Positions 37,886 through 57,992 are shown, counted from the first letter of the stretch. The stretch is DNA of 64,000 bases from Chthonomonadales bacterium (GCA_037443035.1 JBBIPC010000007.1:1-64000); one strand, 5' to 3'. Notes: generated by a model from the sequence alone, not told the origin. Numbers and translations are program-made.

Positions 37886-37926
37886 AAGACGGCCCGGCGC
37901 TCTCGTGCACCGGGCTTCTCTCTAAG

Positions 37927-41246: not shown

Positions 41247-41250
41247 GCCG

Positions 41251-41691
41251 TCACGTGGCTGGATCAGTATCGGAGTCGGTCTGAGCGGTCTCTTCGACGT
41301 TTGTTGCCTTCGCTTCCGGAACCTCCTCGGCGGCCTTCTCAGCATCCAGCGCTGCCTTGGCTGCCGCACCAATGCGCATGGTCAGAAGGTCCGCGTCCCT
41401 GGCTTCGCCAGCCACGATCTCCCCGTACTGGGCACCTCCATCTACTCCCTTCCACGCGAAGACCAGACGTGCGTTTTTCATGTGCGAAAGGAAGCCGTGG
41501 GCGTGGCCCACGACCTCTCGGGCGGCAGATGGGCTCGTCACGGCTATCGCTATGCGCTGATACCCCTGGGCGTCTGCTACTTCGTCAGCAGGAGGCTCGA
41601 CCAGGCGGCCCCGCAAGTGCGGCACCACCCTTTCTACGAAGGCGTCGCGGTCCCGGTCCGTCACGAAGTGCAAGGTCAGGATGAACGGCAT
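41251..41691 (-). CDS. Hypothetical protein
   Basis: 146-aa ORF with a GAGG RBS, co-oriented between the AKR and the GH-like gene with short spacers. Confidence 0.6.
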   Translation of the reverse strand: MPFILTLHFVTDRDRDAFVERVVPHLRGRLVEPPADEVADAQGYQRIAIAVTSPSAAREVVGHAHGFLSHMKNARLVFAWKGVDGGAQYGEIVAGEARDADLLTMRIGAAAKAALDAEKAAEEVPEAKATNVEETAQTDSDTDPAT

Positions 41692-41700
41692 GGCTACACC

Positions 41701-42882
41701 TCACTTCCAGAGTCGTTGTCCGGCCCTACCTGCCAGGCGTTCATGGGTATCCCTGAGCAGGGTCGGAATATCGAGTTTCAGCGGACAGCGTGGCAGACAC
41801 TCCCCGCAATTCGTGCAGAAGTCCCCCTGGGCACCTGGGAACCAGTGTCCCGCACCACCGGTCCGTTCGCCCGTGGCTGGATCCCGTCGGACGAACATGC
41901 CGTACCGGTACCGCCCGAACTCCACCATGTCGAACGCCACGGCAAGGTTCCGCAGGCGCAGGATCTCCGGTATATGCACATCTTCCGGGCATGGCAAGCA
42001 TGCGTGGCAGAAGCTGCAGTAGGTGGTGCCCAACGCATGCAGGGCATCTTCCAGTCGTCGAGCCACGGCGGAGGCTTGTTCCGGCAGCGGCCCCTCCTGG
42101 TCAGCACCGGTCAGATGCGCATCGAACTCTTGCGGCGTTGCGGCACCAACCGAGAGCGTGTGTACCTCCGGTTGGGCCAGGAGCCACCGCTGGTTGAACT
42201 CGATGGGCGTCAGGGGGTGGCAAAGTTCAGCCAGCTTCCGCGGAGGGTTGAAAAGCTGCCCACCTTTGTCGGTCGGTGAGATGATGAACACGCCCATGTC
42301 CATGGAGGCTGCAAGCTCCACAGCGGGTCTGTTCCGCTGGTTGACGAAATAGTAGTGCAGGTTCACGGCTTCGAACTCGCCCGTTCCGATGGCTCGTAGA
42401 ATCGTCTCCAGCGGCGCATGTGTAGCGAAACCCAGATGCCCGACCAGACCTTCGTCCATCGCCCGGCGGACCGCCGTCAGCGTGCCTTGGTGCTGGAGGG
42501 TGAGATCCAGGAGTTCGTCGGTATTGATGCCGTGAATATCCAGAATATCCACCCTATCCGTGTTGAGTCGGATCAGGGAATCATCGAGGGCAGCACGGAA
42601 CTCATCTGCCGTGGCAGCAGGCGCGATCTTCGTCGTCAGGAGGAACTCCTCGCGACGGATGACGCCTTCCCTAATCGCGCTTCCGATGAGCGCTTCGCTC
42701 GGTCCATATCCCCTCGCCGTCTCGATGTGGTTGATTCCCACATCCAGCGCCCGACGCAGCGTCGCGAACGCGCGCTCCCGATTCTCGTGCTCGGTCTCCT
42801 CCGGCATGGGCGGGATGCGCATGGCGCCGAATGTCAGTACGGTCGTATGGAGATTGGTCTTACCGAAGCGTCGTTTCTGCAT
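41701..42882 (-). CDS. Aldo/keto reductase with C-terminal 4Fe-4S dicluster (COG1453-type)
   Basis: KRRFGKT..FGAMR, GINHIETARGYG, LTTK; CSFCHACLPCP and CTNCGECLPRCP. Confidence 0.9.
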   Translation of the reverse strand: MQKRRFGKTNLHTTVLTFGAMRIPPMPEETEHENRERAFATLRRALDVGINHIETARGYGPSEALIGSAIREGVIRREEFLLTTKIAPAATADEFRAALDDSLIRLNTDRVDILDIHGINTDELLDLTLQHQGTLTAVRRAMDEGLVGHLGFATHAPLETILRAIGTGEFEAVNLHYYFVNQRNRPAVELAASMDMGVFIISPTDKGGQLFNPPRKLAELCHPLTPIEFNQRWLLAQPEVHTLSVGAATPQEFDAHLTGADQEGPLPEQASAVARRLEDALHALGTTYCSFCHACLPCPEDVHIPEILRLRNLAVAFDMVEFGRYRYGMFVRRDPATGERTGGAGHWFPGAQGDFCTNCGECLPRCPLKLDIPTLLRDTHERLAGRAGQRLWK

Positions 42883-43021: not shown

Positions 43022-44437
43022 ATGGTACCGAAACTCCTGCGCACGCTTGGCGATTACTGGTTCCCTATGGCCACTGCTATGGCGGCGGTGGTGGCACTCG
43101 GATGGTGGGTGCATGGTTACCTGTATCCGCCACCGGTTCCGGAGCGTGCACTCGGCATCGAGCAGTTCCGCACAAGGCCCGCGGCGCCGTCCCCGGCGGC
43201 CACCTCGTCGGCGACGAGTTTCAGCCGCCAACCTAGCCGTTTCGAGGCGCTCCCCGGCGTGTGGCCGTGGTTCCGAGGACCGATCCACGATAACGTCGTC
43301 CAGTCGGATGTCTCCATCTCCTTGGACTGGGGAGCCAACGGGCCACCTGTCGTCTGGAAGGTCGCCATGGGCGAAGGTTACGCGGCTCCGGCGGTGTGCA
43401 ATGGGCGAGTTTACGTGATAGATTACGATCAGGTTGGTCAGGCGGACGCTATCCGATGCTTTGCACTCTCCAATGGAGAAGAACTGTGGCGTCGCTCCTA
43501 TCCTGTGGTCGTCAAACGTAATCATGGTATGTCCCGTACCATCCCAGCGGTCTCCGACAAGCACGTCGTGACGCTGGGACCCAAGTGCCACCTGTCATGC
43601 ATGGATCCGCTCACAGGCAAACTGCTTTGGCAGCACGATCTTGTCGCAGAATACGGCGTAACCGTGCCGGAATGGTACGCAGGCCAGTGTCCGCTGCTCG
43701 ATGGGGACAGGGTTATCGTCGGCACGGGCGGCCAGGCGCTCATGATGGCGTTTCGTCTGGCCGACGGGAAGATCGCATGGCAGACTCCGAACCCACGCGG
43801 CTGGGTGATGACCCACTCGTCGGTTCTTCCGATCACCGTTGGCGGCAGGAGACAGTACGTATGGTGCGCCAGCGGAGGGGTTGTTGGGGTGGACGCATCC
43901 ACTGGGAAGGTGCTCTGGGAGAATCTGGACTGGGTTATCAGTACCGCGACGGTTCCTACGCCTGTAGACCTCGGCAGCGGCAGGTTGTTCCTGAGCGGAG
44001 GTTACAACTCCGGAGCCATGTTTCTGAAGATAACGGGCGCGGGTTCGACCTTTGCAGCAACCGTCGAGCAGCGGCTTCCCGCTTCCATCTTCGGTGCTGA
44101 ACAGCAAACACCGATTTTCTACAAGGGTCACATCTACGGCGTGAAAACGGGCGGTAAGATGGTATGCCTGGACCCAGCGGGTCGCCCTCTCTGGGACAGC
44201 GGAACGGATAGGTTCGGCCTGGGTCCCTATCTTGTCTGGAACGGTACCATATTGGCCATGAGCGATAGTGGGACCCTGAGCGCCATCGAAGCTACACCGA
44301 CGGGCTACAAGCGCCTAGCCCAGGCGAAGGTCTTGAACGGACCGGAGGCATGGGGGCCCATGGCGCCGGCCGGTACGCGTCTTCTCGTCCGGGACCTGAC
44401 GGAGATGCGCTGCTTGGAACTTGGGAAGTCTCGGTAG
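43022..44437 (+). CDS. Membrane-anchored PQQ-binding-like (BamB-type) beta-propeller protein
   Basis: N-terminal TM; WPWFRGP..N, W...GP..VW, GEGYAAPAV, repeated D..TGK.LW blades, W.PMA...TRLLVRD. Confidence 0.85.
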   Translation: MVPKLLRTLGDYWFPMATAMAAVVALGWWVHGYLYPPPVPERALGIEQFRTRPAAPSPAATSSATSFSRQPSRFEALPGVWPWFRGPIHDNVVQSDVSISLDWGANGPPVVWKVAMGEGYAAPAVCNGRVYVIDYDQVGQADAIRCFALSNGEELWRRSYPVVVKRNHGMSRTIPAVSDKHVVTLGPKCHLSCMDPLTGKLLWQHDLVAEYGVTVPEWYAGQCPLLDGDRVIVGTGGQALMMAFRLADGKIAWQTPNPRGWVMTHSSVLPITVGGRRQYVWCASGGVVGVDASTGKVLWENLDWVISTATVPTPVDLGSGRLFLSGGYNSGAMFLKITGAGSTFAATVEQRLPASIFGAEQQTPIFYKGHIYGVKTGGKMVCLDPAGRPLWDSGTDRFGLGPYLVWNGTILAMSDSGTLSAIEATPTGYKRLAQAKVLNGPEAWGPMAPAGTRLLVRDLTEMRCLELGKSR

Positions 44438-44476
44438 AGGAGCATAACCCTGGCGCAGGGGAACGTATAGGACAGT

Positions 44477-45466
44477 ATGGGCAGGGAAGATCGAGATACG
44501 CGCACTACGCGACGGGACCTCTTCCGCGGCGGCGCCACGATTGTCGCCCTCTCCACGCTCGTGGCGGGATGCAGCGACAGACGTACGCGTTCGCATAGCG
44601 TGCACCCCGATGAAGATACGCCACCGCCCACGGATCCTGCCCTCGTCAAGTATCGGGAGAAAGCACGCCTGCCAATCACGGTACCGGAACCGAGGGGGAT
44701 CGCCTGGGATGGCGCTAGTTCGGTATGGGTCGTTGGCAACGGCGAAATGCAGCGCTCCCCCATCGAGGGGCCGTCCCCGGTGGCGGAGACGATCCGCTAT
44801 GACGGCCCAGGGGCGTGCGTGGCCTTCGACCATAAGAGGCTGCTTGTGGGCGTCGAAGGCAAGGTGCTCGAGGTACCGACGAGCTCATGGTTACCTCGTG
44901 TCTGGCTCGACGCCGGCCCCGATGCTGTTATCACATGTATCGCTGTAGGCAAAGATGCCATCTACCTCGCCGATGCCGGGCATCGCAGGATCGTGCGATG
45001 CACTCTGGATGGCAAGATACGCGGCTATCTCTGCGAGAAGGATGAGAAGCGAGGGTACGGCGGACTCATCGTCCCGAGCCCACACCTCGATGTCTGCGTG
45101 GACGCCGAAGGCGCAGTTCATGTCGCGAATCCGGGCAGTCATCGCATCGAGATCTACGACCCCGATGGTGCGCCCCGTTGGTCTTGGGGTGAGGAGTCCC
45201 AGGACATGCCTGGATTCTGCGGTTGCTGCAACCCAACGGACTTCGCACTCTTGCCGGACGGGCGCTATGTCACTGCCGAGAAAGGCATACCGCGCATCAA
45301 GATCTACAGCCCTGAAGGGCACTTCGAGTGTGTCGTGGCCGGTCCCGAGCGTCTCTCCCCGGGAGTGGTCGGCGTGGACGTCGCGGTCCTGGCCAACGGA
45401 GTGATCGCGGCTCTGGATAGGGGAATCGGTGCTGTTCGGCTCTTCGCACGGTCCGAGGGAGGATAG
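44477..45466 (+). CDS. Tat-exported lipoprotein, NHL-repeat beta-propeller with GFCGCCNP motif
   Basis: TTRRDLF twin-Arg, lipobox LVAGC; EPRGIA, IYLADAGHRRI, VHVANPGSHRIEIY, FCGCCNPTDFA. Confidence 0.8.
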   Translation: MGREDRDTRTTRRDLFRGGATIVALSTLVAGCSDRRTRSHSVHPDEDTPPPTDPALVKYREKARLPITVPEPRGIAWDGASSVWVVGNGEMQRSPIEGPSPVAETIRYDGPGACVAFDHKRLLVGVEGKVLEVPTSSWLPRVWLDAGPDAVITCIAVGKDAIYLADAGHRRIVRCTLDGKIRGYLCEKDEKRGYGGLIVPSPHLDVCVDAEGAVHVANPGSHRIEIYDPDGAPRWSWGEESQDMPGFCGCCNPTDFALLPDGRYVTAEKGIPRIKIYSPEGHFECVVAGPERLSPGVVGVDVAVLANGVIAALDRGIGAVRLFARSEGG

Positions 45467-45469
45467 CTC

Positions 45470-45682
45470 GTGACAGTAACGCGCAGGGAGTGGCTGAGGG
45501 CGTTGGCCCGACTTGGTGTCGCCGCCGGGGTCATTGGTGGCGCCGCTTGTCTCATGCACCGTCCCGAGGGATCGTGCACTGTGGCGCCGGATTGTGGCGA
45601 GTGCGCGGCGCTGAGAGGATGCCGCCTTCCCCAGGCAGAGATCGCGCGCAGGACACAGGCAATAGCCGGACGGTCCAGGTGA
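45470..45682 (+). CDS. Small twin-arginine/TM protein with four Cys (C-x5-C-x2-C-x5-C)
   Basis: GTG start after GGAGG; VTRREWLR, hydrophobic helix, CTVAPDCGECAALRGC; stop overlaps the next start (GTGA). Confidence 0.65.
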   Translation: MTVTRREWLRALARLGVAAGVIGGAACLMHRPEGSCTVAPDCGECAALRGCRLPQAEIARRTQAIAGRSR

Positions 45683-46251
45683 GTGACATGACACAGCAGA
45701 AGGGACTCACACGTCGGGAGATCCTCGCGGGAGCCGCACGCGCTGGTACGGCCGCTGCCACTGGCGGGGTACTGGTGTCGCTGGCACGAGGCGCGCACTC
45801 GTCACCGACCGTCTGGCAGATCGATCCTGACAAGTGCATCCAATGCAACAAGTGCGCCACCGAGTGCGTGCTCACTCCGTCCGCGGTCAAGTGTGTCCAC
45901 GCCTACGCCATTTGCGGCTACTGCAAGCTATGCTTCGGGCTGCTCCGAGACAAGCGCACGGGCAATACCCTCACCGCTGAGAACAACCGGTGCCCGGTCG
46001 ACGCCATCGAGCGGCGATTCGTCGAGGACCCGTACTACGAGATGTACATCGATGAGCAACTCTGCATCGGTTGTGGCATCTGCGTCAAGGGGTGCAATCG
46101 CTTCGGCAACGGGTCCCTGTTCCTGCAGATACGCCATGACCGATGCGTCAACTGCAACGAGTGCGCCATAGCCCGCGTCTGCCCCTCCAATGCCTTTGTG
46201 CGGGTGCCAGCCTCTAGGCCGTATCTGCTCCGGAGCCAGCGCCGAGCGTGA
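45679..46251 (+). CDS. Tat-signal polyferredoxin (about four 4Fe-4S clusters; NapG/RnfB-like)
   Basis: LTRREIL; CIQCNKCATEC, CGYCKLC, CPVDAI, CIGCGICVKGC, CVNCNEC..VCP. Confidence 0.85.
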   Translation: MSDMTQQKGLTRREILAGAARAGTAAATGGVLVSLARGAHSSPTVWQIDPDKCIQCNKCATECVLTPSAVKCVHAYAICGYCKLCFGLLRDKRTGNTLTAENNRCPVDAIERRFVEDPYYEMYIDEQLCIGCGICVKGCNRFGNGSLFLQIRHDRCVNCNECAIARVCPSNAFVRVPASRPYLLRSQRRA

Positions 46252-47543
46252 GGAAGCAGGCATTCGTATCTATCGCCGCCGGCTGGTTCATCCTCCTGGC
46301 TGCGGCACTCGGGGCACAGGAACAGAAGAAGCAGCCGCCCCCCGAGTTCTCTTCTGGGTATTTCCCGCCTACGCCGACGACCCCTCAACCTCGGCTGGAC
46401 ACGTTCGCCGTCGTGGATGTCGTGGTGCTCTTCGTGGTACTGGTGCTGACGGTCTGGTTCGTATACCGCATGCGGTCCAGAACGATGGTCCGCCTCCTTG
46501 TTGTGTTTTCCGTGCTCTACTTCGGCTTCTACCGCCTGGGGTGCGTCTGCGCTGTGGGGAGCATCCAGAACGTCGCTCTGGCGATCGGGGACCGAAGCTA
46601 CACCCTTCCCGTGACAGTCGGCGCGTTCTTCGCCCTGCCCCTCGTCTTCGCGTTGTTGTATGGCCGCGTATTCTGCGCCGCCGCTTGTCCCCTTGGCGCC
46701 ATCCAGGACCTCGTGCTCCTTCGGCCCCGCCAGATCCATCGGGCGCTGAATGAGACTCTGGGTGTGGTCCCCTACCTCTACCTTGGCGCTGCCGTAGCCT
46801 TCGCCTGGACCGGCGCCGGGTTTGTCATCTGCCGGTACGACCCATTCATACCGTTCTATCGGCTGGGCGGCCACTGGGGCGTCATGGCGCTGGGAGCAGG
46901 TCTGCTCGTTCTCGGAACGGTCGTCGGTCGCCCCTACTGCCGTTACCTGTGCCCCTACAGCGTCCTTCTGCGCTGGACATCGGCGCTGTCCGCTCGGCGT
47001 GTGCGCATCACGCCCGGCGAGTGCCTTCACTGTCACCTCTGCGCCGATGAATGCCCCTTCGGCGCCATTCAACCTCCCACTCGTTTCGAGCCGGTATGGG
47101 ACCGGGGCGCGGCACGGCGGAAGCTGATCATAGCGCTAGTCTTGCTCCCCCTGCTGACCGTAGGGCTTGGTGTCCTAGGATACGCCGCAGCACCGGCCAT
47201 GGCCCGTGTGCATCGTGATATCCGCCTCGCCGAACGACTCTGGCTCGAGGAGACCGGCCGCGTTCGAGGCGTCACCGATGAGACCGAGGCATATCGCCAG
47301 CTTGCGTTGCCCAACACCGCGGCTTATCACCGGGCAGCAAGAGTGCGCCGCAAGTTCGATGTAGCAGGTGCCCTTCTTGGGTGCTGGTTCGGCCTTGTCA
47401 TCGGTGCTAGGCTGATCAGCGTTACGATCCGCCGCAATAGGGAGGACTACGAAGCGGATCGGAGTGGATGCGTTGCCTGCGCTCGCTGCTACATGTCCTG
47501 TCCGGTGGAGCACGAACGGTTGGGGCTGATCACGCTCGAATGA
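46248..47543 (+). CDS. Membrane polyferredoxin, NapH/YccM family
   Basis: Multi-TM; GRVFCAAACPLGAIQD, RPYCRYLCPY, CLHCHLCADECPFGAI, CVACARCYMSCP. Confidence 0.88.
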   Translation: MRKQAFVSIAAGWFILLAAALGAQEQKKQPPPEFSSGYFPPTPTTPQPRLDTFAVVDVVVLFVVLVLTVWFVYRMRSRTMVRLLVVFSVLYFGFYRLGCVCAVGSIQNVALAIGDRSYTLPVTVGAFFALPLVFALLYGRVFCAAACPLGAIQDLVLLRPRQIHRALNETLGVVPYLYLGAAVAFAWTGAGFVICRYDPFIPFYRLGGHWGVMALGAGLLVLGTVVGRPYCRYLCPYSVLLRWTSALSARRVRITPGECLHCHLCADECPFGAIQPPTRFEPVWDRGAARRKLIIALVLLPLLTVGLGVLGYAAAPAMARVHRDIRLAERLWLEETGRVRGVTDETEAYRQLALPNTAAYHRAARVRRKFDVAGALLGCWFGLVIGARLISVTIRRNREDYEADRSGCVACARCYMSCPVEHERLGLITLE

Positions 47544-49516
47544 CGACACACAGCGAGACATTCCAGGAGCGTTCGCGTGCTGCGACAGCAGCGGAGTGGA
47601 CGGCGCGCGTGGCGCTTGTGTACAGCGCCGTCGTCCTCGTCCTCATGCTCATCAACGCTGTGGCTGCACGTTCTGCACATCCCATCGAAGTTGCGTCCCT
47701 CGAGGCGCTGCAGCATGATCTGACTGTTCGCCCCGATGACGAGGGGCTCCGGCGACGCGTCAGGCAGGAGGACAAACGCATTCGGCAGGAGTACCTCCGC
47801 CACCGGGATTTCGCAGTGCGAGGGGCATGGCTTCTGCTCGCTGGTATTGCTACGTTCCTTGCCGCCGGCGAATACGCGCGGCGGTTCCAGACTCCAATGC
47901 CCACGCCCCGTCCTGACGCCGCCAGCCGCGCACGTGCGGCGGCCGACGCCACGTTCCGGGCGCTGGTAGCCGTCGGAGGCGTCCTGGCCGGAGCACTCCT
48001 TACCCTGACGGTCCTCTCCAGGCATGACACGGCGGCCGAGTACGTCCGCGCGGCGAGCCGTTCTCCCACGCAAGCCGGTGGGATGATGCCCGGTGGTTTG
48101 CCTCCGACGACCGGCCAGCAGGCAGCCACGGGTCTACCTGTCGCTACCGGTCCCGAACTTGCCAGCCCAGTCAGCGGATCCACAGGTATGCCAACGCCGC
48201 GACCTTCTGGTGGTAGGCTATCCGGTCCCGGTACCGTCATGATGCCTCTGCAGGGGCCGTCCAAGCGCCCGACACCGGCGGGCGGCGTTGCTTCGGAACT
48301 ACTGCGGCGCCCCCTGCCGAAGGTCGAGCCTTCTACGGCGCCTGGTTGGGAACGGAACTGGCCGAGGTTTCGTGGACCGGCGGGCACTGGAATCGCGTTT
48401 GGCGCAAATCCGCCGCTCCAGTGGAACGGTCAGACCGGCGAAGGCATCCTCTGGAAGACGAAGCTCCCTCTGCCAGGCTGGAACTCTCCCATCGTGTGGG
48501 AAGGACGCATCATCTGCAGCGGTGCGGACGAGACCCATCGAGAAGTCTACTGTCTCGACCTCTCCACGGGCGCCATCGTCTGGAAGACGACTGTACCATC
48601 TTCGGGTGGCGCCGCTCCGAAAGTCCAGGCCGACACCGGCTATGCGCCATCCACGCTCGCCACCGACGGAGCACGCATCGTGGCTGTCTTCGTCAATGGA
48701 GATGTGGCATGCCTGGACATGAGCGGCAAGCTGCTCTGGAAGCGCAGTTTCGGTCCGATGGAAAACCCCTACGGACATGCGTCGTCCCCCGTCGTCTTCG
48801 GATCGGGGGTAATCCTCCAGCTCGACCAGGGACACGGCGCCGAGGACGGCAAGTCCGCGCTCCTGGCCCTCGACCTTGTCAGCGGGAAGACGGTCTGGCA
48901 GATCCAGCGACCCGTGGGCGCATCGTGGAGCACGCCCATCCTGATCACGGTGAACGGCAAGGAGCAGCTCGTCACTACCGCGAACCCCTGGGTCATCGCC
49001 TATGATCCCCACGACGGTACCGAGCTGTGGCGCGCCGAGTGTCTCGGCGGAGAAGTGGCCGTATCTCCCGTGACTGCGCAAGGCTATGTCGTTGTGGCGA
49101 ACCAGGGATCGAACTCGGCTGCCATCAGGCCCGACGGCCGGGGCGACGTCAGCAAGTTGGCCGTGGCGTGGACGGCGGGCGACGGTCTGCCTGACATTGT
49201 CAGTCCTCTTGCGTTCCAGGATCTCACCCTGCTGGTCACAACGGAAGGCTTCCTGACCTGCATCGAGACGAAGACTGGCAAGAGAGTCTGGGAAGAAGAC
49301 CTGGGCGTCACCGTGCGCGCGTCGCCTGTCCTGGCCGGCGGCCGAGTCTACCTGCTCGATGCCAGCGGCACGATGCACATTCTCCAACCCGGCCGGACGT
49401 TCAAACTCATAGGACGGTGTCCCTTGGGTGAAGCTGCCAATGCTACGCCTGCGTTCGTGGCCGATCGGATCGTAATCCGCACCCGGCAACACATCGTCTG
49501 CGTGGGCTCCCGATGA
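47540..49516 (+). CDS. Three-TM membrane protein with Pro-rich linker and PQQ-binding-like (BamB-type) beta-propeller
   Basis: ATGA overlap start at 47540; TM helices; NWPRFRGP, ILWKT.LP..GWNSPIVW, YGHASSP, SWSTP, ASPV, ATPAF. Confidence 0.82.
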   Translation: MTTHSETFQERSRAATAAEWTARVALVYSAVVLVLMLINAVAARSAHPIEVASLEALQHDLTVRPDDEGLRRRVRQEDKRIRQEYLRHRDFAVRGAWLLLAGIATFLAAGEYARRFQTPMPTPRPDAASRARAAADATFRALVAVGGVLAGALLTLTVLSRHDTAAEYVRAASRSPTQAGGMMPGGLPPTTGQQAATGLPVATGPELASPVSGSTGMPTPRPSGGRLSGPGTVMMPLQGPSKRPTPAGGVASELLRRPLPKVEPSTAPGWERNWPRFRGPAGTGIAFGANPPLQWNGQTGEGILWKTKLPLPGWNSPIVWEGRIICSGADETHREVYCLDLSTGAIVWKTTVPSSGGAAPKVQADTGYAPSTLATDGARIVAVFVNGDVACLDMSGKLLWKRSFGPMENPYGHASSPVVFGSGVILQLDQGHGAEDGKSALLALDLVSGKTVWQIQRPVGASWSTPILITVNGKEQLVTTANPWVIAYDPHDGTELWRAECLGGEVAVSPVTAQGYVVVANQGSNSAAIRPDGRGDVSKLAVAWTAGDGLPDIVSPLAFQDLTLLVTTEGFLTCIETKTGKRVWEEDLGVTVRASPVLAGGRVYLLDASGTMHILQPGRTFKLIGRCPLGEAANATPAFVADRIVIRTRQHIVCVGSR

Positions 49517-52011
49517 TCCGCCTACTTGGACGTAGAGGGCGTCCCGACCGGACCATCGGCAGCGCCGGTGGCTCCAGACACATGGCACCGGCACCGGAAC
49601 CGCCGCCACCTGGCAAGTTCGTCGAAGACTTGGTCGGAGAACTCGGTCGAGGTCAGGAAGCTCTCATACCTATCCTCCAGGCCATCCAGAAACGCTACCG
49701 GTATCTACCCGAGGAGGCTCTCCATCGGATCTGCGAACTGACGGATATCACGCCAACAGACCTCATGGGTGCGGCAACCTTCTATTCTCAGTTCCGGCTC
49801 GAGCCTGTGGGTCGCCACATCGTCAGCGTCTGCCACGGCACGGCCTGCCACGTGAAGGGTTCCGAGCTTGTGGACGATGGTCTGCGGCGTTACCTCCGCT
49901 TAGGAGAGGGTCAGGACACCGACCGAGATGGCGTTTTCACCGTGAAGAGAGTCGCATGCGTTGGGTGCTGCACTCTCGCTCCCGTGATACAGATTGACGG
50001 CCTCACCTACGGCCACATGAGCTCGGAGACCGTCGGCAAAGCCCTCGAGGACTACCTCTCGCTGGAGCGACGCGGCGAAGTACCTTCGGCCACGAGCGAC
50101 ACCTACGGCGGCAACATGGGCGAGGTTCGGCTTGCCCTGGACTCCTGCTGCATCGCTGGCGGGACCATGCGCGTCCGGGATGCCGTCGCTAAGGCCATCG
50201 CCGACGTTGGCGCACCCGCCGTTGTTCGGGGTATCTCCTGCAGCGGGCTGTGTCACCAGATCCCGCTCGTGGAAGTAGCAGTACCGGGCAGGCCCATCGT
50301 TACCTACGCCCGATTCGATCCTGCCGACGCAGAAGGTCTGGTCAGGCGCCACTTTCGCCCCACTCGGTTCTCGGACCGCTTGAGAGCGACTGCCACCACT
50401 CTGCTGGATGGCTTGCTGGCAGACGATGCGCGGCAGCCTCTGACACGCTACGCACTGGACACACGCGATCCCATGCTCTGCGCGTATCTCGGTCCCCAGA
50501 AGCGGATCGCCATGGAGCATGCCGGTGAGTATCCGCCCTTGGACCTGGAAGCCTACGCGAGTCGAGGAGGTTTCAGCGCTCTTCGCCGATGCGTCGCTGC
50601 AATGACTCCGGAACAGGTGATCGGCGAGGTGAAGAGGAGCGGTCTGCGGGGCCGCGGCGGAGCCGGTTTTCCAACGGGTCTGAAGTGGGAGAAGGTACGC
50701 GCCGCAGGTGGTACACCCAAGTACGTCATCTGCAACGGCGACGAGGGCGATCCTGGCGCATTCATGGATCGGATGCTGCTGGAGTCGTTCCCGTTCCGCG
50801 TGCTGGAGGGTATTGCCATCGCGGCTTATGCAGTAGGTGCAGAAGAGGGTGTGCTGTATATACGCGCCGAGTACCCTTACGCCGTGGAGAGAATCCGTCG
50901 TGCCATCGCCATGTGCGAGGAGCGAGGTCTGTTCCATCTTGGGTCGGACGGCCGACCTGCTAAGAGCACGACGAGCGACGGGCACGGCAGCTTTCGCCTC
51001 CGGCTCCGGGTCATGGAGGGGGCAGGCGCGTTCGTCTGCGGGGAGGAGACCGCCCTGATCGCTTCCATTGAGGGGCGGCGCGGCGTACCGACGCTGCGTC
51101 CCCCGTACCCGTCCGAGAGCGGGCTATGGGGAAAGCCCACGTCCATCAACAACGTGGAGACGTACGCCCTTGTACCGTGGATACTCCGCAACGGCGCAGA
51201 GGCGTTCGCCGCCATCGGCACCGAGAACAGCAAGGGGACCAAGGTGTTCGCACTGGCAGGGAAGGTGCGCCGCGGCGGGTTGATCGAGGTGCCCATGGGA
51301 GTAACGATCCGCACCATCGTGGAAGATATCGGCGGAGGGGTACCCGAGGGTTCCCACTTCAAAGCGGTGCAGATCGGTGGCCCATCCGGCGGATGCCTTC
51401 CGGCGAGCCTGGCGGACACGCCCGTGGACTACGATGCCCTCCGGTCCGTGGGGACCATCATGGGTTCCGGCGGCATGGTGGTTCTCGACGATCGTACCTG
51501 CATGGTGGACATCGCCCGCTATTTCCTCGCGTTCACGCAAGCGGAGTCCTGCGGAAAGTGCACGTTCTGCCGCCTGGGAACGAAGCGCATGCTGGAGATC
51601 CTCGAACGCATGTGCACAGGCCGAGGCCGTCGCGGAGATATCGAGAAGCTGGAGGAGCTGAGCCGGATGGTCCAGCAAGGCAGCCTCTGTGGCCTCGGTC
51701 AGACAGCGCCTAACCCAGTCCTGACCGGCATCCGGTACTTCCGCGAGGAGTACGAAGCCCATCTCGATGGCAAGTGTCCGGCCGGTGCCTGCAAGGAGCT
51801 GATCCGATACGAGATCACCGAGGACTGCATCGGCTGTACGCTCTGCGCGCAGCAGTGCCCGGTCGATGCCATCGCGTTGCGGCCATTCGCTCGCCACGTG
51901 ATCGCAGACGAGAAGTGCACGCGATGCGACACCTGCCGGAAGCAGTGCCCCGAGGACGCCATTGTCATTCTGTCCGGCGGCGAACGTGTCGTGACGGGCA
52001 GGAGAGGGTGA
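49513..52011 (+). CDS. Fused NuoE-NuoF (HydC-HydB-like) FMN/Fe-S NADH-binding subunit
   Basis: CHGTACHVKG..CVGCC (NuoE 2Fe-2S); second thioredoxin-like Cys set; SGLRGRGGAGFPTG, CNGDEGDPGAFMDR, GAFVCGEETAL, QIGGPSGGC, ESCGKCTFCR, SLCGLG, H...KCPAGAC; two C-terminal 4Fe-4S motifs. Confidence 0.92.
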   Translation: MIRLLGRRGRPDRTIGSAGGSRHMAPAPEPPPPGKFVEDLVGELGRGQEALIPILQAIQKRYRYLPEEALHRICELTDITPTDLMGAATFYSQFRLEPVGRHIVSVCHGTACHVKGSELVDDGLRRYLRLGEGQDTDRDGVFTVKRVACVGCCTLAPVIQIDGLTYGHMSSETVGKALEDYLSLERRGEVPSATSDTYGGNMGEVRLALDSCCIAGGTMRVRDAVAKAIADVGAPAVVRGISCSGLCHQIPLVEVAVPGRPIVTYARFDPADAEGLVRRHFRPTRFSDRLRATATTLLDGLLADDARQPLTRYALDTRDPMLCAYLGPQKRIAMEHAGEYPPLDLEAYASRGGFSALRRCVAAMTPEQVIGEVKRSGLRGRGGAGFPTGLKWEKVRAAGGTPKYVICNGDEGDPGAFMDRMLLESFPFRVLEGIAIAAYAVGAEEGVLYIRAEYPYAVERIRRAIAMCEERGLFHLGSDGRPAKSTTSDGHGSFRLRLRVMEGAGAFVCGEETALIASIEGRRGVPTLRPPYPSESGLWGKPTSINNVETYALVPWILRNGAEAFAAIGTENSKGTKVFALAGKVRRGGLIEVPMGVTIRTIVEDIGGGVPEGSHFKAVQIGGPSGGCLPASLADTPVDYDALRSVGTIMGSGGMVVLDDRTCMVDIARYFLAFTQAESCGKCTFCRLGTKRMLEILERMCTGRGRRGDIEKLEELSRMVQQGSLCGLGQTAPNPVLTGIRYFREEYEAHLDGKCPAGACKELIRYEITEDCIGCTLCAQQCPVDAIALRPFARHVIADEKCTRCDTCRKQCPEDAIVILSGGERVVTGRRG

Positions 52012-52024
52012 GGGAGGAGATCCA

Positions 52025-53593
52025 ATGCCTGATCTCACCATAGACGGGCGGACGGTGCACGCACCGGAAGGAGCGACCATCCTCGAGGCGGCGGCATTGG
52101 CCGACATCGAGATACCGACTCTCTGCTACCTGCCGCACAAGCCTCCCCAGACCTCGTGTTTCCTCTGCGTAGTCCGCGTAGAGGGGACGTCGCGCCTCCT
52201 ACCGGCGTGCGCCACGCGTGTATCCGACGGCATGGTAGTCCACAACGAGTGCGACGAAGTGCGCGCCGCCAGGCGGACGGCCATCGAATTGCTGTTGAGC
52301 GATCACCTGGGCGACTGTGTGGGGCCATGCCAAAGCGTCTGTCCAGCCCATATGGACATCCCACAGATGATGGCCTTGACCGCTCGAGGACGCTTCAGGG
52401 AAGCGCTCATCGTTGTCAAGGAGGCGATACCCCTGCCCGCGGTTCTCGGCCGGATATGCCCTGAGTTATGCGAGAAGGGGTGCCGTCGGGCATCGTACGA
52501 CGCTCCGCTCTCCGTCTGCCTAACGAAACGATTCGTGGCGGACTACGACCTGGCGAGCGACCATCCCTACATGCCGGAGTGCGCTCCTCCGACGGGCAAG
52601 CGGGTAGCTGTCATCGGCTCCGGTCCCGCAGGGCTGTCGGCGGCGTATTACCTGAGGCGTGCTGGGCATGCGTGTGTCGTATTCGATGAGCATGAAGCCC
52701 TCGGAGGCATGCTCCGGTACGGCGTGTCTCGTGACGTTCTACCAGAGCAGGTCCTGGACAACGAGATCGAGATTATCCGGCGTATGGGGGTCGTCTTCGT
52801 TCCCCGTACGCGCATCGGCCGTGACGCTTCGCTGCTGGAGATGAAACGCGAGTATGATGCGATCCTTCTTGCGGTAGGAGACGTGCGAGACGGAAGGAAC
52901 GAGTGGGCATCCCTCGCCTTCGGTCCTCAAGGACTGCAGGTGGATCGTGCTTCGATGATGACGTCCATGGAGGGCGTCTTCGCAGCGGGTGGCGCACTGC
53001 TACCCCTGAAGCACGCGGTCCGGGCCGTGGCGGACGGACGCGCGGCTGCATATGCTATCAGCGAGTACCTCGTGGGATCACCTGTAGGTACGGTAGATCC
53101 CGGTTTCAGTGTGCATATCGGAAAGCTGGACGCGCAGGAGGTTCTCCCGTTTCTCCGCTTCGGCACGCCGGACGGCCGCCAGTCACCGTCTAGCCAGGAC
53201 GGCGGTTTCACTCCCGAGGAGGTCCAGCGGGAATCTCGCCGGTGCCTGCAATGTGCATGTTCGGCCGCATCCCGCTGCCGTCTCAGGATGTTCGCTCAGC
53301 GGTACGACGCCCAGCCGCTTCGCTACAGCGGTGAGAGACGCGGTATGGGCATAGACGACAGCCACCCGGACATCCTCTTCGATTCGGGCAAGTGCATTGC
53401 GTGCGGCATTTGTGTGCGCATCGCAGCAGAGGCGCACGAGAAGCTCGGCATAGGCTTCGTAGGCAGAGGATTCGGGGTACGAACCGCAGCACCCTTCCAC
53501 GCCGCCATGGTGGACGGGCTACGAGAGGTGGCCCTCGCCTGCGCCGATGCTTGCCCCACAGGAGCCCTAGTGCGCCGAACGACGCTCCCCTAG
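52025..53593 (+). CDS. NuoG/HydA N-terminal Fe-S domains fused to a shortened GltD/NfnB-like FAD domain and a terminal 4Fe-4S domain
   Basis: IPTLCY..SCFLC..PACAT; SDHLGDCVGPCQSVCP; LGRICPELCEKGCRR; VAVIGSGPAGL; TSMEGVFAAG; RCLQCAC..C; CIACGIC..CPTGAL. Confidence 0.85.
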   Translation: MPDLTIDGRTVHAPEGATILEAAALADIEIPTLCYLPHKPPQTSCFLCVVRVEGTSRLLPACATRVSDGMVVHNECDEVRAARRTAIELLLSDHLGDCVGPCQSVCPAHMDIPQMMALTARGRFREALIVVKEAIPLPAVLGRICPELCEKGCRRASYDAPLSVCLTKRFVADYDLASDHPYMPECAPPTGKRVAVIGSGPAGLSAAYYLRRAGHACVVFDEHEALGGMLRYGVSRDVLPEQVLDNEIEIIRRMGVVFVPRTRIGRDASLLEMKREYDAILLAVGDVRDGRNEWASLAFGPQGLQVDRASMMTSMEGVFAAGGALLPLKHAVRAVADGRAAAYAISEYLVGSPVGTVDPGFSVHIGKLDAQEVLPFLRFGTPDGRQSPSSQDGGFTPEEVQRESRRCLQCACSAASRCRLRMFAQRYDAQPLRYSGERRGMGIDDSHPDILFDSGKCIACGICVRIAAEAHEKLGIGFVGRGFGVRTAAPFHAAMVDGLREVALACADACPTGALVRRTTLP

Positions 53594-53670: not shown

Positions 53671-53707
53671 TCTGCGGGGGACGCCGGTCTTGGACATCCC
53701 CCGCAGA
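53671..53707. terminator. Strong hairpin between convergent genes (possible bidirectional terminator)
   Basis: TCTGCGGGGGA (53671-53681) and TCCCCCGCAGA (53697-53707) form a perfect 11-bp stem; no clear U-tract. Confidence 0.5.
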
Positions 53708-53734: not shown

Positions 53735-54886
53735 CTAGTCGCAGTCGGGACATCCGCCAGGTGCGCCCGTGTTGGACGGCCGCAACCAGTAGATGACGTG
53801 CGTTATGTTGCCGTTGGTCGTCTGCGAGTAGACGCCCTTGTCCTCGTAGTAGTCCAGCTTGGCCTCGACCCAGTACGGTCCAGGCGGAGGTACCACGAAG
53901 GCGGCAATGCCCTGCGTTGATGTGATGCCGCGCGCCTGCCACGCACCTCGATCACGCCGCACGCGAACCATGGCTCCGCAGACGGGCACCATGGGGCTCA
54001 CGGTCGGATCCTCCACCACCTCTACGATAATGTAGTGGGTAGTGCTGGGATAGGTGTTGATGGCCCACCATGAGAAGTGTGTCACCTGGGCGCGGTACAC
54101 GGCCGGGCTGACGGTGTCGTCTCGAGTCGCCATCGCCTCGACGATCCAACGGCCTGTTGCCTTATCGAGCGACCAGACAGGTACGGTGGGCGTTCCCGGA
54201 TCATGCCCAGGCGTGATGGGGAACTCCACCGTGGCAGGCTTCGCCGGGTCCAGTCGGGCCGGCTGACCCGTGGAGTCCTTCAGCGCTACGTTCACGACAC
54301 CATGACTGAACAGCGGCACTTCGCCACCACCGACGACCCCGACGAAGAGACTCGGGTACGCATAGTTGAAGCGAGCGTCCTCCGGTGAGGCAGTTGTGAT
54401 GGAAACAACCGGATTCGCCACAGGCGCCCCGGACGCATCCACAACGCTGTTGGCAGGGAACGTGATCTTGCAGTTCAGCCCGTCAGCACGATTGTCCTCG
54501 ACCACGCTGTCCTGGGTGCCATCCATGTTGATCGTCGCGCCTGACTTGAAGAGCACGACGTCCATGGTTGACCAGCGCCCGTTCTCCACTTTCGCTACGG
54601 CTACGGATTCGGCGTAGCTCGGCTTGGAGTAGGTGACGGTGAACTCCTGGGTGCCGGACGGGACGCCTTTGAGGACGTACAGACCGGCGCTGTTCGTGGT
54701 TGTCGTGACGGCCGGATTGGATGCCAGGCTGACCGTGACGCCCGCGATAGGCAGGTCGGAAGTGTCTGTAACCTTGCCCATCAGGCGCGGGCTCCGTGTG
54801 GAAGAGCCACCGCCGCCGCATCCGGCCAACGCTAGGACAGCCACGGCGGCTGCAACGACAACGAGTGCGATTGTGCCTTTCTTCAT
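53735..54886 (-). CDS. Lipoprotein with carboxypeptidase-regulatory-like beta-sandwiches and a ZU5-like domain
   Basis: MKK..LALAGC lipobox; GKVTD..PIAGVTV..TNSAGLY; VWSLDKATGRW..VTHFSWW; GGAGG RBS before ATG 54886. Confidence 0.7.
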   Translation of the reverse strand: MKKGTIALVVVAAAVAVLALAGCGGGGSSTRSPRLMGKVTDTSDLPIAGVTVSLASNPAVTTTTNSAGLYVLKGVPSGTQEFTVTYSKPSYAESVAVAKVENGRWSTMDVVLFKSGATINMDGTQDSVVEDNRADGLNCKITFPANSVVDASGAPVANPVVSITTASPEDARFNYAYPSLFVGVVGGGEVPLFSHGVVNVALKDSTGQPARLDPAKPATVEFPITPGHDPGTPTVPVWSLDKATGRWIVEAMATRDDTVSPAVYRAQVTHFSWWAINTYPSTTHYIIVEVVEDPTVSPMVPVCGAMVRVRRDRGAWQARGITSTQGIAAFVVPPPGPYWVEAKLDYYEDKGVYSQTTNGNITHVIYWLRPSNTGAPGGCPDCD

Positions 54887-54918
54887 CTGTGTGTGACCTC
54901 CTTGGCTGCCGACCCTGA

Positions 54919-56820
54919 TCATTGTCCGGGCCACCAACCGCTCTCCGGAACGAACCGGTAGCGATCAAGAAACGTATTGCGCAAGTCGGGCCCGAGCGAA
55001 AGCTCCCGAGCCGTGATGTCCTCCAAGTACAGATAGTTGACGCCTTCGATGATGCTGCGCAACTGCTGTTCGACGTAGTCCTCCAGCCGCACCCTCACAC
55101 GCTGGGGTGGTTGCGGCTGGCGGCGCGGGCTCAGCGGCATGCTGAGCGTGATCTGGACAAGGCGGCTCGTGGACGTATCCCGTACCCCGATTCCCAGCTC
55201 CACAGAGCCGAACTGACGAATGAAATCCACGCCGACGCCAGTGTCGGCGGTAAGGAAGCGGCCGCCCAGCAAGCGGATCTGCGACTTCCATTGTGGCAGG
55301 AAATGCCAGTATTCCAGCAACCAGTACAGCCGCTTGTCCAACCGGTCGTGGTTAATGCGTCCGAATACGCCATGGACGAGGCTCCGACTGCTCAGTGGCC
55401 TCAGCGCCTCCACCACGACACCGTCAGCAGACCTGGGGAACTTGCCGGCGATGACCTGCGCGAGCCATCGTGGGCGCGGTGAAAACGCGTAGGAGACCAC
55501 GGCACGATCGTTGCGCCATCGGCGCGGCTCCTCATCCACCAGCTCCCCACCGAGCGGGTAGATCCATCGGGCCTGAGCTTGAGCGCCACGGCCTAATGGC
55601 GCCACCACCTCCACCCTGCCGAAGACACCGATCTGAAATACGTCCGTCTCCGTACCCAGCACGGTTCGCATGCCCGGGCTCAACACGACATCCACATGCC
55701 CGAAGGAGCTGTTGGCGACGGCAGTTTCCTGCTGTGGCCCCCGCATCTCGCCGGTTGGAGGCAATAAAGTCACTTCGCTCGCCTCTCGCATGTCTGCAGG
55801 AGTCGCGTCGCCGGCTGCGTAGCGCTTGAATGTCTCCAGGGGAACCCGGTACTCGGCCATGACCAGAGCACGCCGTCGCAGTCGTACCACCAAAGCCACT
55901 GTGTTCGGGGGCGCGTTCTCAGCCATGACCTTCAGGACATCAGGAAGGCCATCGAGCTGATTCACTGTGAAGCAGCGGTCATCGTAGGCAACGGCTAGCT
56001 CCGAGTTCTCGCCGATGAGGGTGGCCGAGACCTGGACATCCTCGAACCCGGATTTCACCAACGCCTCTTTGATGCGCTCCATGGCCTCGCTGATGGTGCC
56101 CTCGGGCGGCTTCCGTGCGGGGGGCTCCAGCTTGCGCGGAGGCAGGTAGGCCATGGGCCAGCTAAAGCCAACTGTAGCTGTTGTACCGGTACTGAGGTTG
56201 GCAACACGGGCGAAGGCGCGGTCGCCCAGTGCAGCGACGATACCGTAGTTCACCCGCTCTGTATCGTACTCCGCCTGAAGCTCGATGGCGTTGCCGAGGC
56301 GAACCTGCAAGCCAGCCAGCAGCCCGTGGTTGCCACTGAACGCTCCACCCAGGGTAAGGCCCACCTGATTGTCCAAGAGTGGCCACGTGGCAACTAGGAA
56401 GCCCGTGGAGCCCTTGGGACCATTGCGCGCCACGTCCACCACGCCAAGCGCTACGGCCGGCATGGAGCCCGAGGCGTTCAGCAGGTTCACCTTCCCATGG
56501 CCAGCCAAGTCGAAATCCTGCGACGCAGGTCCCAGGGAGAAGGCGAACTCGGTGTGTGGAATGACGCCCGCTACGGCAGCGAAGGAGCTCCTGGCCCCGA
56601 TGGAGACAGGTCCCATGCCCATGGGAGGTGTATAGACGAATCTCGCATGTTCCTGCCTCAGCACGAACGCGTTCGGCACCCGGATAAGACCCGTCAGGCC
56701 TGTGAGACTCGCCGTGCGGTCCAGGCCGCTACCGGAAGGTTGGGCGTAGCAGGACACGCCGCTTCCCAACGCCAGCGACACCAGAAGCAACTCCCCTACT
56801 GCGTAGAGGATTCCACGCAT
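54919..56820 (-). CDS. YjbH/GfcD-like outer-membrane protein
   Basis: Signal peptide; SLTGLTGLIRVPNA N-terminal YjbH motif; AEYD; GRFLTADTG.GVDF.RQFG beta-barrel strands. Confidence 0.75.
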   Translation of the reverse strand: MRGILYAVGELLLVSLALGSGVSCYAQPSGSGLDRTASLTGLTGLIRVPNAFVLRQEHARFVYTPPMGMGPVSIGARSSFAAVAGVIPHTEFAFSLGPASQDFDLAGHGKVNLLNASGSMPAVALGVVDVARNGPKGSTGFLVATWPLLDNQVGLTLGGAFSGNHGLLAGLQVRLGNAIELQAEYDTERVNYGIVAALGDRAFARVANLSTGTTATVGFSWPMAYLPPRKLEPPARKPPEGTISEAMERIKEALVKSGFEDVQVSATLIGENSELAVAYDDRCFTVNQLDGLPDVLKVMAENAPPNTVALVVRLRRRALVMAEYRVPLETFKRYAAGDATPADMREASEVTLLPPTGEMRGPQQETAVANSSFGHVDVVLSPGMRTVLGTETDVFQIGVFGRVEVVAPLGRGAQAQARWIYPLGGELVDEEPRRWRNDRAVVSYAFSPRPRWLAQVIAGKFPRSADGVVVEALRPLSSRSLVHGVFGRINHDRLDKRLYWLLEYWHFLPQWKSQIRLLGGRFLTADTGVGVDFIRQFGSVELGIGVRDTSTSRLVQITLSMPLSPRRQPQPPQRVRVRLEDYVEQQLRSIIEGVNYLYLEDITARELSLGPDLRNTFLDRYRFVPESGWWPGQ

Positions 56821-56872
56821 GCGTTACGTCCTTCCCCTCCGCACCCGGGCAAAGCCCGCCTGCTAATGCCTA

Positions 56873-56901
56873 ATAGTAACACGAGACCTCTCCACTGTCA
56901 A
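56873..56901 (-). promoter_or_regulatory. sigma70 promoter for the yjbH-like/lipoprotein unit
   Basis: Minus strand TTGACA (56901-56896), 17 nt, TACTAT (56878-56873) with extended TG. Confidence 0.7.
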
Positions 56902-56978
56902 GGGAGAAGCCGACAATAACGATAGACGCCACCTGGCGCAAGGCTGGCCCCTGCGTCGGGTGGCATCTCAGGGCAGTG

Positions 56979-57052
56979 TCGGGGTGGGCGGACTTGAACC
57001 GCCGACCTCGCAGTCCCGAACCGCGCGCTCTACCAAGCTGAGCCACACCCCG
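56979..57052 (-). tRNA. tRNA-Pro (anticodon CGG), CCA not encoded
   Basis: CGGGGTGTGGCTCAGCTTGGTAGAGCGCGCGGTTCGGGACTGCGAGGTCGGCGGTTCAAGTCCGCCCACCCCGA folds as a cloverleaf; anticodon loop TT-CGG-GA; T-loop GGTTCAAGTCC. Confidence 0.95.
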
Positions 57053-57072
57053 ATAGTCGGGTCGTCACGTTC

Positions 57073-57102
57073 AGTATGCTTCAAGTCCCGATCGACTGTC
57101 AA
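57073..57102 (-). promoter_or_regulatory. sigma70 promoter of tRNA-Pro
   Basis: Minus strand TTGACA (57102-57097), 18 nt, CATACT (57078-57073), about 20 nt upstream of the tRNA. Confidence 0.6.
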
Positions 57103-57194
57103 GGTACCCAGCGTGATTCGACCGCGGATACACGGAGGGCGCTCGCATTCGCGCGGGCGCCCGCCTCGACGTCAGGTTGTGCTCCGTCCGATAT

Positions 57195-57992
57195 CTACTG
57201 GCGGTTCTCCGGGATGTTCCGGCACTGATTCTGCCAGTCGCGGAGGACGTTGCTGTCAGGTCCGGACCACCACTCCCAGAGGAAGTCGTCCGCAGGCACC
57301 TGCCCTGGCGCCCAGTTCAACGCCCCGAATGTGGCACACGCGTTGATCGCCTTGGCGTGGCCATCGTAGAAGCACCAGGTGGACTTGGCAGAGTTATGGC
57401 CGTTGAACATACCCTTGGAGCCATCGAACCACACGGTCCAGGGCAGCGTCCACGTTCCGAGATCCGGATACCACTCACGGGACTCGATAATCATGATGAG
57501 CGTGGATGGGCGTGTAGGCTCCGAGATCTTGCGGCCTGATGGCGCGTAGGCCGTGTGCGCCCAGCTGTGGCAGCCCGCATAGGACCGTCGGGCCATGGGC
57601 TGCTGCCATGCCAACTGGACATCGCTGCAGAGGCCCCATGCCCATAGGGGTTCATCGTACATCTCCCACATGGGGCAGACCGTCACGCCCGAGTTCTTGA
57701 TGTACGGATAGACCGAGTAGCGCCAGTCCCAGACGTTCCGGACGATCCGCCCGTCGAAGGATGTGCCCACCTGGGTACAGTTGCCCGACTGACCACCGTA
57801 GGGCAGGGTTTCGTCGTAGTCCTGCGCGTACTGAAGCACAGCCAGACCAAGCTGCTTGATGTTGGAAATGCACTGAGTGCGCTTCGCCTGTGCCCGCGCC
57901 TGCGCGAAGACAGGGAAGAGGATCGCCGCCAGAATGGCAATGATGGCGATCACGACGAGAAGTTCGATCAGGGTAAAGCCGCGACGTTGCAT
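57195..57992 (-). CDS. Prepilin-type N-terminal cleavage/methylation protein with DUF1559 and an H-X9-DG-type C-terminal motif
   Basis: [71 protein letters not shown] (H-X10-DG here). Confidence 0.9.

Follow-up and report, generated by a model that had tools for sequence, protein, structure and literature searches.

Between positions 43,022 and 53,593 of a 64,000-nt stretch of DNA from a Chthonomonadales bacterium (GCA_037443035.1, JBBIPC010000007.1:1-64000; the whole stretch is called the window below), eight co-oriented open reading frames, named A to H, make up an operon whose gene order is shared over about ten bacterial phyla. Our favoured reading, to which we give a probability of about 0.45, is that G and H form an electron-bifurcating (Bfu) module which, together with A to F, would constitute a membrane-spanning Fe-S wire carrying the merged electrons of NADH and ferredoxin outward to B, probably for a reduction in an uncharacterised envelope glycolipid/terpenoid export pathway. 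The original prediction for this region, made from the sequence of the window, had described eight co-oriented genes joined by overlaps or by gaps of 40 nt or less, and this layout is confirmed: stop and start codons overlap as GTGA/ATGA at 45679 (C/D), 46248 (D/E), 47540 (E/F) and 49513 (F/G), and the remaining intergenic gaps measure 39, 3 and 13 nt. Its domain calls agree with Pfam and NCBIfam. The G+C content of the operon is that of the whole window, which lies on contig C7 of this genome (G000).

Genes G and H as a Bfu module

The nearest PDB matches of G are NfnB (9bov_B) and StnB (8oh5_B, 9n5u_B), and its FMN/NAD domain scores above cut-off for both PF01512 and PF10589. With the Bfu core defined as in the available text of PMC9304861 and PMC11829005, the ligands of each cluster were followed through an alignment of 53 rows. 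Those of the C1 [2Fe-2S] cluster (C107, C112, C149, C152, C153) are present in 53/53 rows, as are all eight C-terminal Cys of B3 and B4 and the B1 ligands C680, C683 and C726, with C686 kept in 52/53. At the B2 and B5 sites, C663, H750, C755, C760, C212 and C243 occur in 53/53 rows, C213 in 52/53, C247 in 51/53 and C701 in 43/53. G also carries the signatures that, according to the available text of PMC7311640, separate bifurcating from plain NADH-dependent beta subunits, namely A-x-M (as AFM in 53/53), a Phe at the FMN site (53/53) and GGPSG (52/53). Judged by every ligand and signature, G is a complete electron-bifurcating BfuBC core, a sequence-level assignment that bears out the bifurcating-type HydBC module of the original prediction.

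The 'NuoG-GltD hybrid' that had been proposed for H is replaced by another identity, that of a truncated NfnA/StnA subunit. H matches PDB 9bov_A, 9n5u_A and 8oh5_C in two blocks, lacking about 140 of their residues, and the spacer between its FAD-binding halves is 7-35 aa long in 51/51 rows, the NADPH domain being gone; as a control, the GltD of this genome has a 206-residue spacer with a second glycine motif. The 51 rows of this alignment include about six duplicate pairs, those of G, E and F being dereplicated. The Fe-S ligands C34, C45, C48, C62, H94, C407, C410, C412 and C418 are found in 51/51 rows, so that H has the A1 and A2 sites by which BfuA is recognised. The A4 cluster ligands and the C-terminal extension are absent, and loss of A4 is also seen in T. 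sibiricus NfnA. In that enzyme, according to the available text of PMC12018979, Asp466 binds FAD and Arg234 lies near N5; by a mapping inferred through the PDB alignment, H keeps the FAD-ligand Asp in 4/51 rows and the N5-region Arg in 12/51, and the window protein has neither. The first Rossmann motif is retained, with D or E at the acidic ribose-binding position in 51/51, so flavin or nucleotide may still bind H. Because the NADPH domain is deleted in 51/51 rows and the FAD Asp is mostly lost, H is not expected to be a transhydrogenase and would need another partner; most likely, on this comparison, it hands electrons to a protein partner, acting as an Fe-S wire. Annotation pipelines will misname it as glutamate synthase or Nfn. 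Pfam and NCBIfam scans of the operon proteins found no H-cluster, NiFe or molybdopterin family above cut-off, as had been claimed; this negative can be sharpened, in that the would-be catalytic subunit, of the NfnA type, is there, minus its NADPH domain.

The membrane and exported proteins

The membrane protein E could provide the crossing. It has two CxxxCP motifs, a CxC and Cys triad, and a 2[4Fe-4S] domain (eight Cys) interrupted by a transmembrane (TM) hairpin, and its additional Cys residues C99, C101, C143, C147, C195, C231 and C235 are invariant in 83/83 rows. Hydropathy and K/R bias place C99, C101 and C195 near the predicted outer face and the CxxxCP pair (four Cys) near the inner one. 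In a predicted structure (pLDDT, the predicted local distance difference test score, 84.2), residues 251-421 align to the ferredoxin 1dur (49 residues, root-mean-square deviation 1.9, Z 5.6); in the model the split motifs together fold as a single ferredoxin, into which a helical hairpin is inserted, and in two short variants of E both [4Fe-4S] motifs are adjacent. The model gave no Foldseek match at E<=0.001 and a best Z of 7.5 on short helical hairpins, which is no proof of a new fold, and PDB sequence searches with D and E returned ferredoxin fragments only.

This fold also allows a rewired scheme in which the 2[4Fe-4S] domain of E is a tethered ferredoxin at B3/B4 of G, the low-potential branch is exported, and the exposed flavin or clusters of H meet another partner. 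The retained Rossmann motif and acidic ribose-binding position of H would suit it; the operon, however, offers no candidate third partner and the FAD-ligand Asp of H is mostly lost, and we regard the scheme as improbable.

Both A and F had been described as membrane-anchored propellers. This stands for F, whose homologues have three TM-like segments in 66/71 cases; in A an N-terminal anchor is visible in the sequence but falls under the hydropathy threshold used. A has no PDB sequence match. Against the PQQ (pyrroloquinoline quinone) dehydrogenase family TIGR03075, A and F score 19.4 and 38.4 (cut-off 480), and against BamB TIGR03300 51.8 and 75.9 (cut-off 285). For B, the twin-Arg signal of the proposed Tat (twin-arginine translocation) NHL lipoprotein is present in the window protein but not in all homologues, and of the proposed GFCGCCNP motif, GCCNP with its Cys-Cys pair is kept in 31/31 loci but the first Cys in only 13/31. 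The predicted structure of B (pLDDT 87.8) has its best fold matches among NHL domains (Z 29.9); with catalytic NHL/SMP-30 propellers (PAL, lactonases) it gives generic fold matches only, at 10-23% identity, and in the ESM Atlas it falls among unnamed NHL clusters only. No known catalytic cofactor motif was found in A, B or F with Pfam and NCBIfam, nor for B by fold comparison.

A strict pattern for the mini-protein C is found between B and D in 57/75 loci, with further cases by eye and absence in about ten. Most loci encode C as a twin-Arg mini-protein of its own; in L084, L090 and L095 it is joined to the D ferredoxin. The layouts of L090 (labelled Alphaproteobacteria) and L095 (Bacteroidales) are near-identical; the first of these labels is doubtful and was excluded from the phylum tally.

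In the planctomycetes G349 and G389, neither C nor F is present and G opens with a two-helix membrane hairpin, which suggests, at the level of sequence, that the Bfu module is membrane-tethered in these genomes. A short operon variant at L152:8318-16280 and L153:8420-16695 has no C or F, an E without the inserted hairpin, a G with an N-terminal membrane hairpin, and a B that lacks the signal region and reads GGCCNP. What looked like an F-G fusion in L116 proved to be an off-frame reading frame and was rejected.

Table 1. Features of the operon and of the region just downstream, in window coordinates.
Feature	Position	Strand	Description	Basis
A	43022..44437	+	PQQ-like/BamB-type beta-propeller, 471 aa, N-terminal hydrophobic stretch, predicted periplasmic	Pfam PQQ_2 1e-26
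B	44477..45466	+	NHL beta-propeller, predicted lipoprotein (twin-Arg + LVAGC), invariant Cys-Cys in GCCNP, invariant PSP	Homologue alignment, model
C	45470..45682	+	Optional 70-aa Tat-like mini-protein, C-x(n)-C-x2-C-x(n)-C motif	Pattern search between B and D
D	45688..46251 (alternative start GTG 45679)	+	Tat (twin-Arg) signal polyferredoxin, 16 invariant Cys, four predicted [4Fe-4S]	43-row alignment
E	46248..47543	+	NapH/NosR-like membrane polyferredoxin, signal peptide, ~7 TM helices	Pfam Fer4_5
F	47540..49516	+	Three-TM anchor, low-complexity linker, PQQ-like beta-propeller, 658 aa	Pfam PQQ_2
G	49513..52011	+	BfuC-BfuB fusion; FMN/NAD site, C1, B1, B3, B4 clusters, B2 + B5 metal sites	PDB matches, ligands
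H	52025..53593	+	Truncated NfnA/StnA-type BfuA; Fe-S clusters and first FAD Rossmann motif retained	PDB two-block match
Inverted repeat	~53671-53707		GC-rich, 11-bp stem, between convergent genes; possible terminator	Fold and terminator scans

The hairpin said to end the operon has its stem, but without a U tract: folding of the 142-nt region is at chance level (z -1.44, 21/200 shuffles equally good), and a terminator scan gave 0 sites. Divergent from A lies an aldo/keto reductase with a C-terminal 4Fe-4S domain (41701-42879, minus strand; promoter-like site 42927-42899), which does not adjoin the operon in 31/31 loci and is not reckoned among its parts. Downstream and convergent (53735-57992, minus strand) are a lipoprotein with a carboxypeptidase-regulatory-like domain, a YjbH-domain protein and a prepilin/DUF1559 protein; at 37184-41372 are a G5/3D-domain protein, an RsmA (KsgA) methyltransferase above cut-off and an 868-aa protein with a weak GH42 trimerisation match.

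Distribution, linked genes and direction of electron flow

The host is probably a member of the Armatimonadota, its closest named relatives being Chthonomonadales. In a phylum sample of 201 genomes, B (match at E<1e-28; next best match 9e-11) is carried by 32, this genome included. Among the 31 other carrier loci, A, B, D, E, F, G and H occur all together in 19 (one rearranged), nine are cut short where a contig or region stops, and three truly lack genes (L026 without A and H, L034 without H, L051 with A and B only). B has 1614 homologues at E<=0.001, and a GTDB-wide scan for the B marker gave at least 581 confirmed of 599 candidate stretches, of which the best 80 were retained; these carry the labels Armatimonadota, Planctomycetota, Verrucomicrobiota, Bacteroidota, Aminicenantes, Latescibacterota, KSB1, Omnitrophota, Anaerolineales and Spirochaetaceae. 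When each gene is scored only at loci long enough to contain it, relatives of B are accompanied by A (upstream) in 62/67, D in 69/70, E in 65/66, F in 57/59, G in 40/54 and H in 35/47 cases; counts are given per set, since the phylum and GTDB locus sets overlap in part. The original prediction had made its system depend on co-conservation of these genes, and the neighbourhoods of B keep their order across many phyla. Foreign genes stand inside the operon in L048, L050, L055, L056 and L089, where a GH42-like protein, a FAD oxidoreductase, a beta-eliminating lyase, an unannotated reading frame, a radical SAM (S-adenosylmethionine) enzyme and a DUF5916 protein were seen. In the Verrucomicrobia-type loci L096, L104, L114, L117, L128 and L179-L183, B-D-E-F are contiguous; in the genomes searched, A lies elsewhere and an H orthologue was not found.

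That two unrelated modules merely adjoin, G/H being a standard Nfn transhydrogenase or relying on a catalytic subunit from another locus, is very improbable. G/H are separated from A-F in some genomes, and G000 encodes NuoE/F-like paralogues in a cluster of their own on contig C9. Yet a normal NADPH site is impossible in H, F and G overlap at stop and start, the order is kept in many phyla, and G has a membrane hairpin in two genomes. The C9 cluster (C9:7856-12744, L200) consists of NuoE/NuoF/NuoG-like genes and probably encodes a Hox-type NiFe hydrogenase.

Recurring neighbours of the operon are a LolD-like ATPase with an 1100-aa FtsX-type permease, an extra propeller, a family 4 glycosyltransferase with an N-terminal CGxC, a squalene-hopene-cyclase (SHC)-like protein, a DUF116-polyprenyl synthase, a prenyltransferase toroid, radical SAM enzymes and a ferredoxin, a linkage absent from the original prediction. 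One genome, G216, has A-H in the same orientation as its terpenoid genes, the glycosyltransferase gene and the ABC (ATP-binding cassette) genes. Of the 32 carriers, 26 have the glycosyltransferase, 26 the permease and 31 either one, against 2/155 genomes with neither this operon nor the alternative arm described below; the SHC-like cyclase is found in 20/32 carriers and 0/155 of those genomes. Among carriers from other phyla, whose genomes are fragmented, the glycosyltransferase was found in 35/50 (50 of 54 such loci). In G000, an ABC ATPase, permease and propeller are located at C5:120068-125339 (L198), and the CGxC glycosyltransferase at C16:20209-22475 (L199) beside a prepilin-type gene, an arrangement also present just upstream of A in close relatives such as L021. 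The terpenoid module of L140, L141, L164, L165 and L169 (SHC-like cyclase, DUF116-polyprenyl synthase, prenyltransferase toroid, radical SAM, ferredoxin) also holds a GcvH-like protein and a CobW-like GTPase, and is found joined to either arm.

The alternative arm is carried by most sample genomes in which the glycosyltransferase is present and B is not. It encodes two CoA-ligase-like proteins, an aldehyde-dehydrogenase-like protein and an iron alcohol dehydrogenase, together with a HemN-like radical SAM protein, a thioesterase and sometimes a halogenase-like flavoprotein. Its marker is present in 14/201 genomes, with the glycosyltransferase in 14/14, the permease in 13/14 and B in 0/14; in a sample of the class of G201 it occurs in 109/151 genomes and in 0/6 with the long-form operon (one of the six being the sample centre). 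This arm, with glycosyltransferase, ABC exporter and propellers, is itself a second uncharacterised cluster (L133:328-18186, L137, L159, L161, L163). The 92% complete genome G122 has the glycosyltransferase, partial permease and fragmentary propeller matches and no B (L143), possibly a decaying copy. The label 'chorismate lyase-like' for a 184-aa gene of the arm was dropped for want of Pfam, NCBIfam or PDB support.

In the favoured outward scheme, G would merge NADH and reduced ferredoxin into electrons of about -400 mV, the established Bfu chemistry coupling NAD(H) and ferredoxin to a mid-potential path via the A subunit. From there electrons would pass through the clusters of H to the cytoplasmic 2[4Fe-4S] domain of E, cross the membrane via its inner four-Cys and then its outer three-Cys site, and be delivered by D, with C, to B, whose Cys-Cys site would use them on the product of the glycosyltransferase/ABC pathway. 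A and F would be scaffolds or substrate binders, with the membrane hairpin of F anchoring G/H, and the substrate would be supplied by the CGxC glycosyltransferase and the LolD/FtsX-type exporter. Reduced ferredoxin is likely to come from the proteins behind the two POR_N matches in G000. Outward flow is favoured because the neighbours are biosynthetic and because the alternative arm, which shares the same partners, resembles acid-to-alcohol reduction: its CoA-ligase-like, aldehyde-dehydrogenase-like and alcohol-dehydrogenase genes fit a reduction.

Flow in the opposite direction, with a propeller oxidising a substrate in the periplasm whose potential is about -400 mV or lower, and G splitting the electrons to NAD+ and ferredoxin so that energy is conserved, appears unlikely. 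Bfu enzymes are reversible and several oxidise their third substrate (available text of PMC9304861), and most carriers have no strong COX1 match (E<1e-110): one is present in 5/32 carriers, including this genome, in 11/14 other-arm genomes and in 76/155 others, a distribution by which the redox operon leans to low-oxygen lineages and is not confined to them. Against the inward route, the linked genes belong to biosynthesis and export and not to uptake or catabolism, A, B and F show no known catalytic cofactor motif, and pqqC (TIGR02111) was found in 3/201 genomes and 0/32 carriers, although PQQ could still be taken up.

Quinone could also act as the intermediate, in the manner of NapGH, with G/H reducing a membrane quinone (possibly the linked prenyl/cyclase product) and E/D re-oxidising the quinol for the propellers. 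E is NapH/NosR-like and D resembles NapG in its Tat signal and four clusters; the linked genes include those for a polyprenyl synthase and a prenyltransferase; and quinol could be the only donor in genomes that have A-F without G/H. We nevertheless think this distinctly unlikely, since E falls far short of the NapH cut-off (28 bits against 213), its extra invariant Cys triad at the predicted outer face suits a direct Fe-S relay, and the prenyl genes were not found in G000.

Several observations weigh against the outward Fe-S wire and its link to the neighbouring pathway. The direction of the electrons is not readable from sequence, and assembly of the eight products into one complex, which the original prediction also proposed, is likewise a prediction here. 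G is absent beside B in 14/54 and H in 12/47 loci, some being encoded elsewhere in the genome. The Verrucomicrobia-type genomes G226, G229, G237 and G249 have A and B-D-E-F relatives, with only GltD-level matches for H and no G-type fusion found; G/H are thus not obligatory, and the exported half can exist without that donor. Homology between the hairpin of the variant G and the N-terminus of F was not significant in a profile test. In G000 itself the glycosyltransferase (C16) and ABC genes (C5) lie off the operon contig, and terpenoid genes were not found by tblastn. Finally, the zero overlap between B and the other arm in the 201-genome sample has a naive P of 0.08, kin not being independent, and strict exclusivity fails, the other arm being present in both short-variant planctomycetes and in 2/50 carriers from other phyla.

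A bolder extension of the outward scheme is conceivable though doubtful: the operon would be the anaerobic arm of an unrecognised multi-phylum pathway, in which a Bfu enzyme without an active site of its own drives quinone-free, low-potential export of electrons to B. The Cys-Cys propeller B would in turn reduce a glycosylated lipid or cofactor that has been exported; this compound might be what the SHC-like cyclase makes and what the 'empty' PQQ-like propellers bind, aerobes using the ligase/dehydrogenase arm instead.

Relation to known systems

NapGH, NosGH and MauMN combine a Tat four-cluster ferredoxin with a membrane protein bearing two CxxxCP and two [4Fe-4S] motifs. D and E follow this layout, but at a distance: E scores 28.4 for TIGR02163 (cut-off 213) and 25.6 for NF007013 (cut-off 234), and D has no MauM/NapG match at E<=0.01. 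E differs further by its extra CxC/Cys triad and inserted TM hairpin, and both proteins are paired here with a Bfu module. No nitrate, N2O or amine enzyme was found among 18 scanned window proteins or the annotated recurring neighbour families.

The PQQ quinoproteins, BamB and the 'acido-empty-quinoprotein' TIGR04528 have PQQ-like repeats as do A and F, which lie far under all their cut-offs. B shares the NHL fold (Z about 24) with two proteins that combine NHL and thioredoxin-like domains, NHLRC2 (PDB 6gc1) and the 'quenching protein' of 7djk, which we take to be SOQ1. These set a precedent for NHL domains beside thiol redox sites, a fold match that shows no function; unlike them, B is without a thioredoxin domain and has its Cys-Cys within the propeller itself.

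The operon-linked cyclase is a divergent squalene-hopene cyclase homologue in PVC (Planctomycetes-Verrucomicrobia-Chlamydiae) and related phyla, and may, by homology, belong to the SHC-like clade described as of unknown function in the available text of PMC7306690 and PMC12324236, whose passages on that clade do not mention the redox operon. No paper describing the combination of genes in the operon was found in searches of the open literature; figure-only supplements (such as fig. S10 of PMC7306690) may show part of the neighbourhood. The linkage touches two puzzles, what the SHC-like cyclases produce and what PQQ-like propellers do in bacteria unable to make PQQ.

The operon is widespread and apparently undescribed, with G and H within the Bfu family but outside the types listed in the available text of PMC9304861. 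NfnABC/StnABC (PDB 9bov, 9n5u, 8oh5) have in common with G the BfuB/BfuC ligands and with H a BfuA into which an NfnL/GltD-like domain is inserted (available text of PMC11829005 and PMC12018979). Here, in contrast, the C and B subunits are fused, the operon adds membrane and exported subunits, and H, with 522 aa against the 963-1178 aa of the A subunits, has no NADPH domain or C-terminal extension and has mostly lost the FAD-ligand Asp. The predicted membrane-bound Mbh-Bfu and Nuo-Bfu enzymes also have BfuABC in an operon with membrane subunits, and in Table 1 of PMC9304861, as available, the third substrates of Bfu enzymes are small molecules or quinone and no exported protein; no type with a periplasmic Fe-S/propeller output is among those listed there. 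Unlike Mbh-Bfu and Nuo-Bfu, the operon described here has no hydrogenase or complex I membrane arm, and its predicted output is a set of periplasmic Fe-S and propeller proteins. If this is correct, the family would gain a new type of output, Fe-S proteins exported by Tat and wired to a Bfu core, and low-potential electrons a new route into the periplasm.

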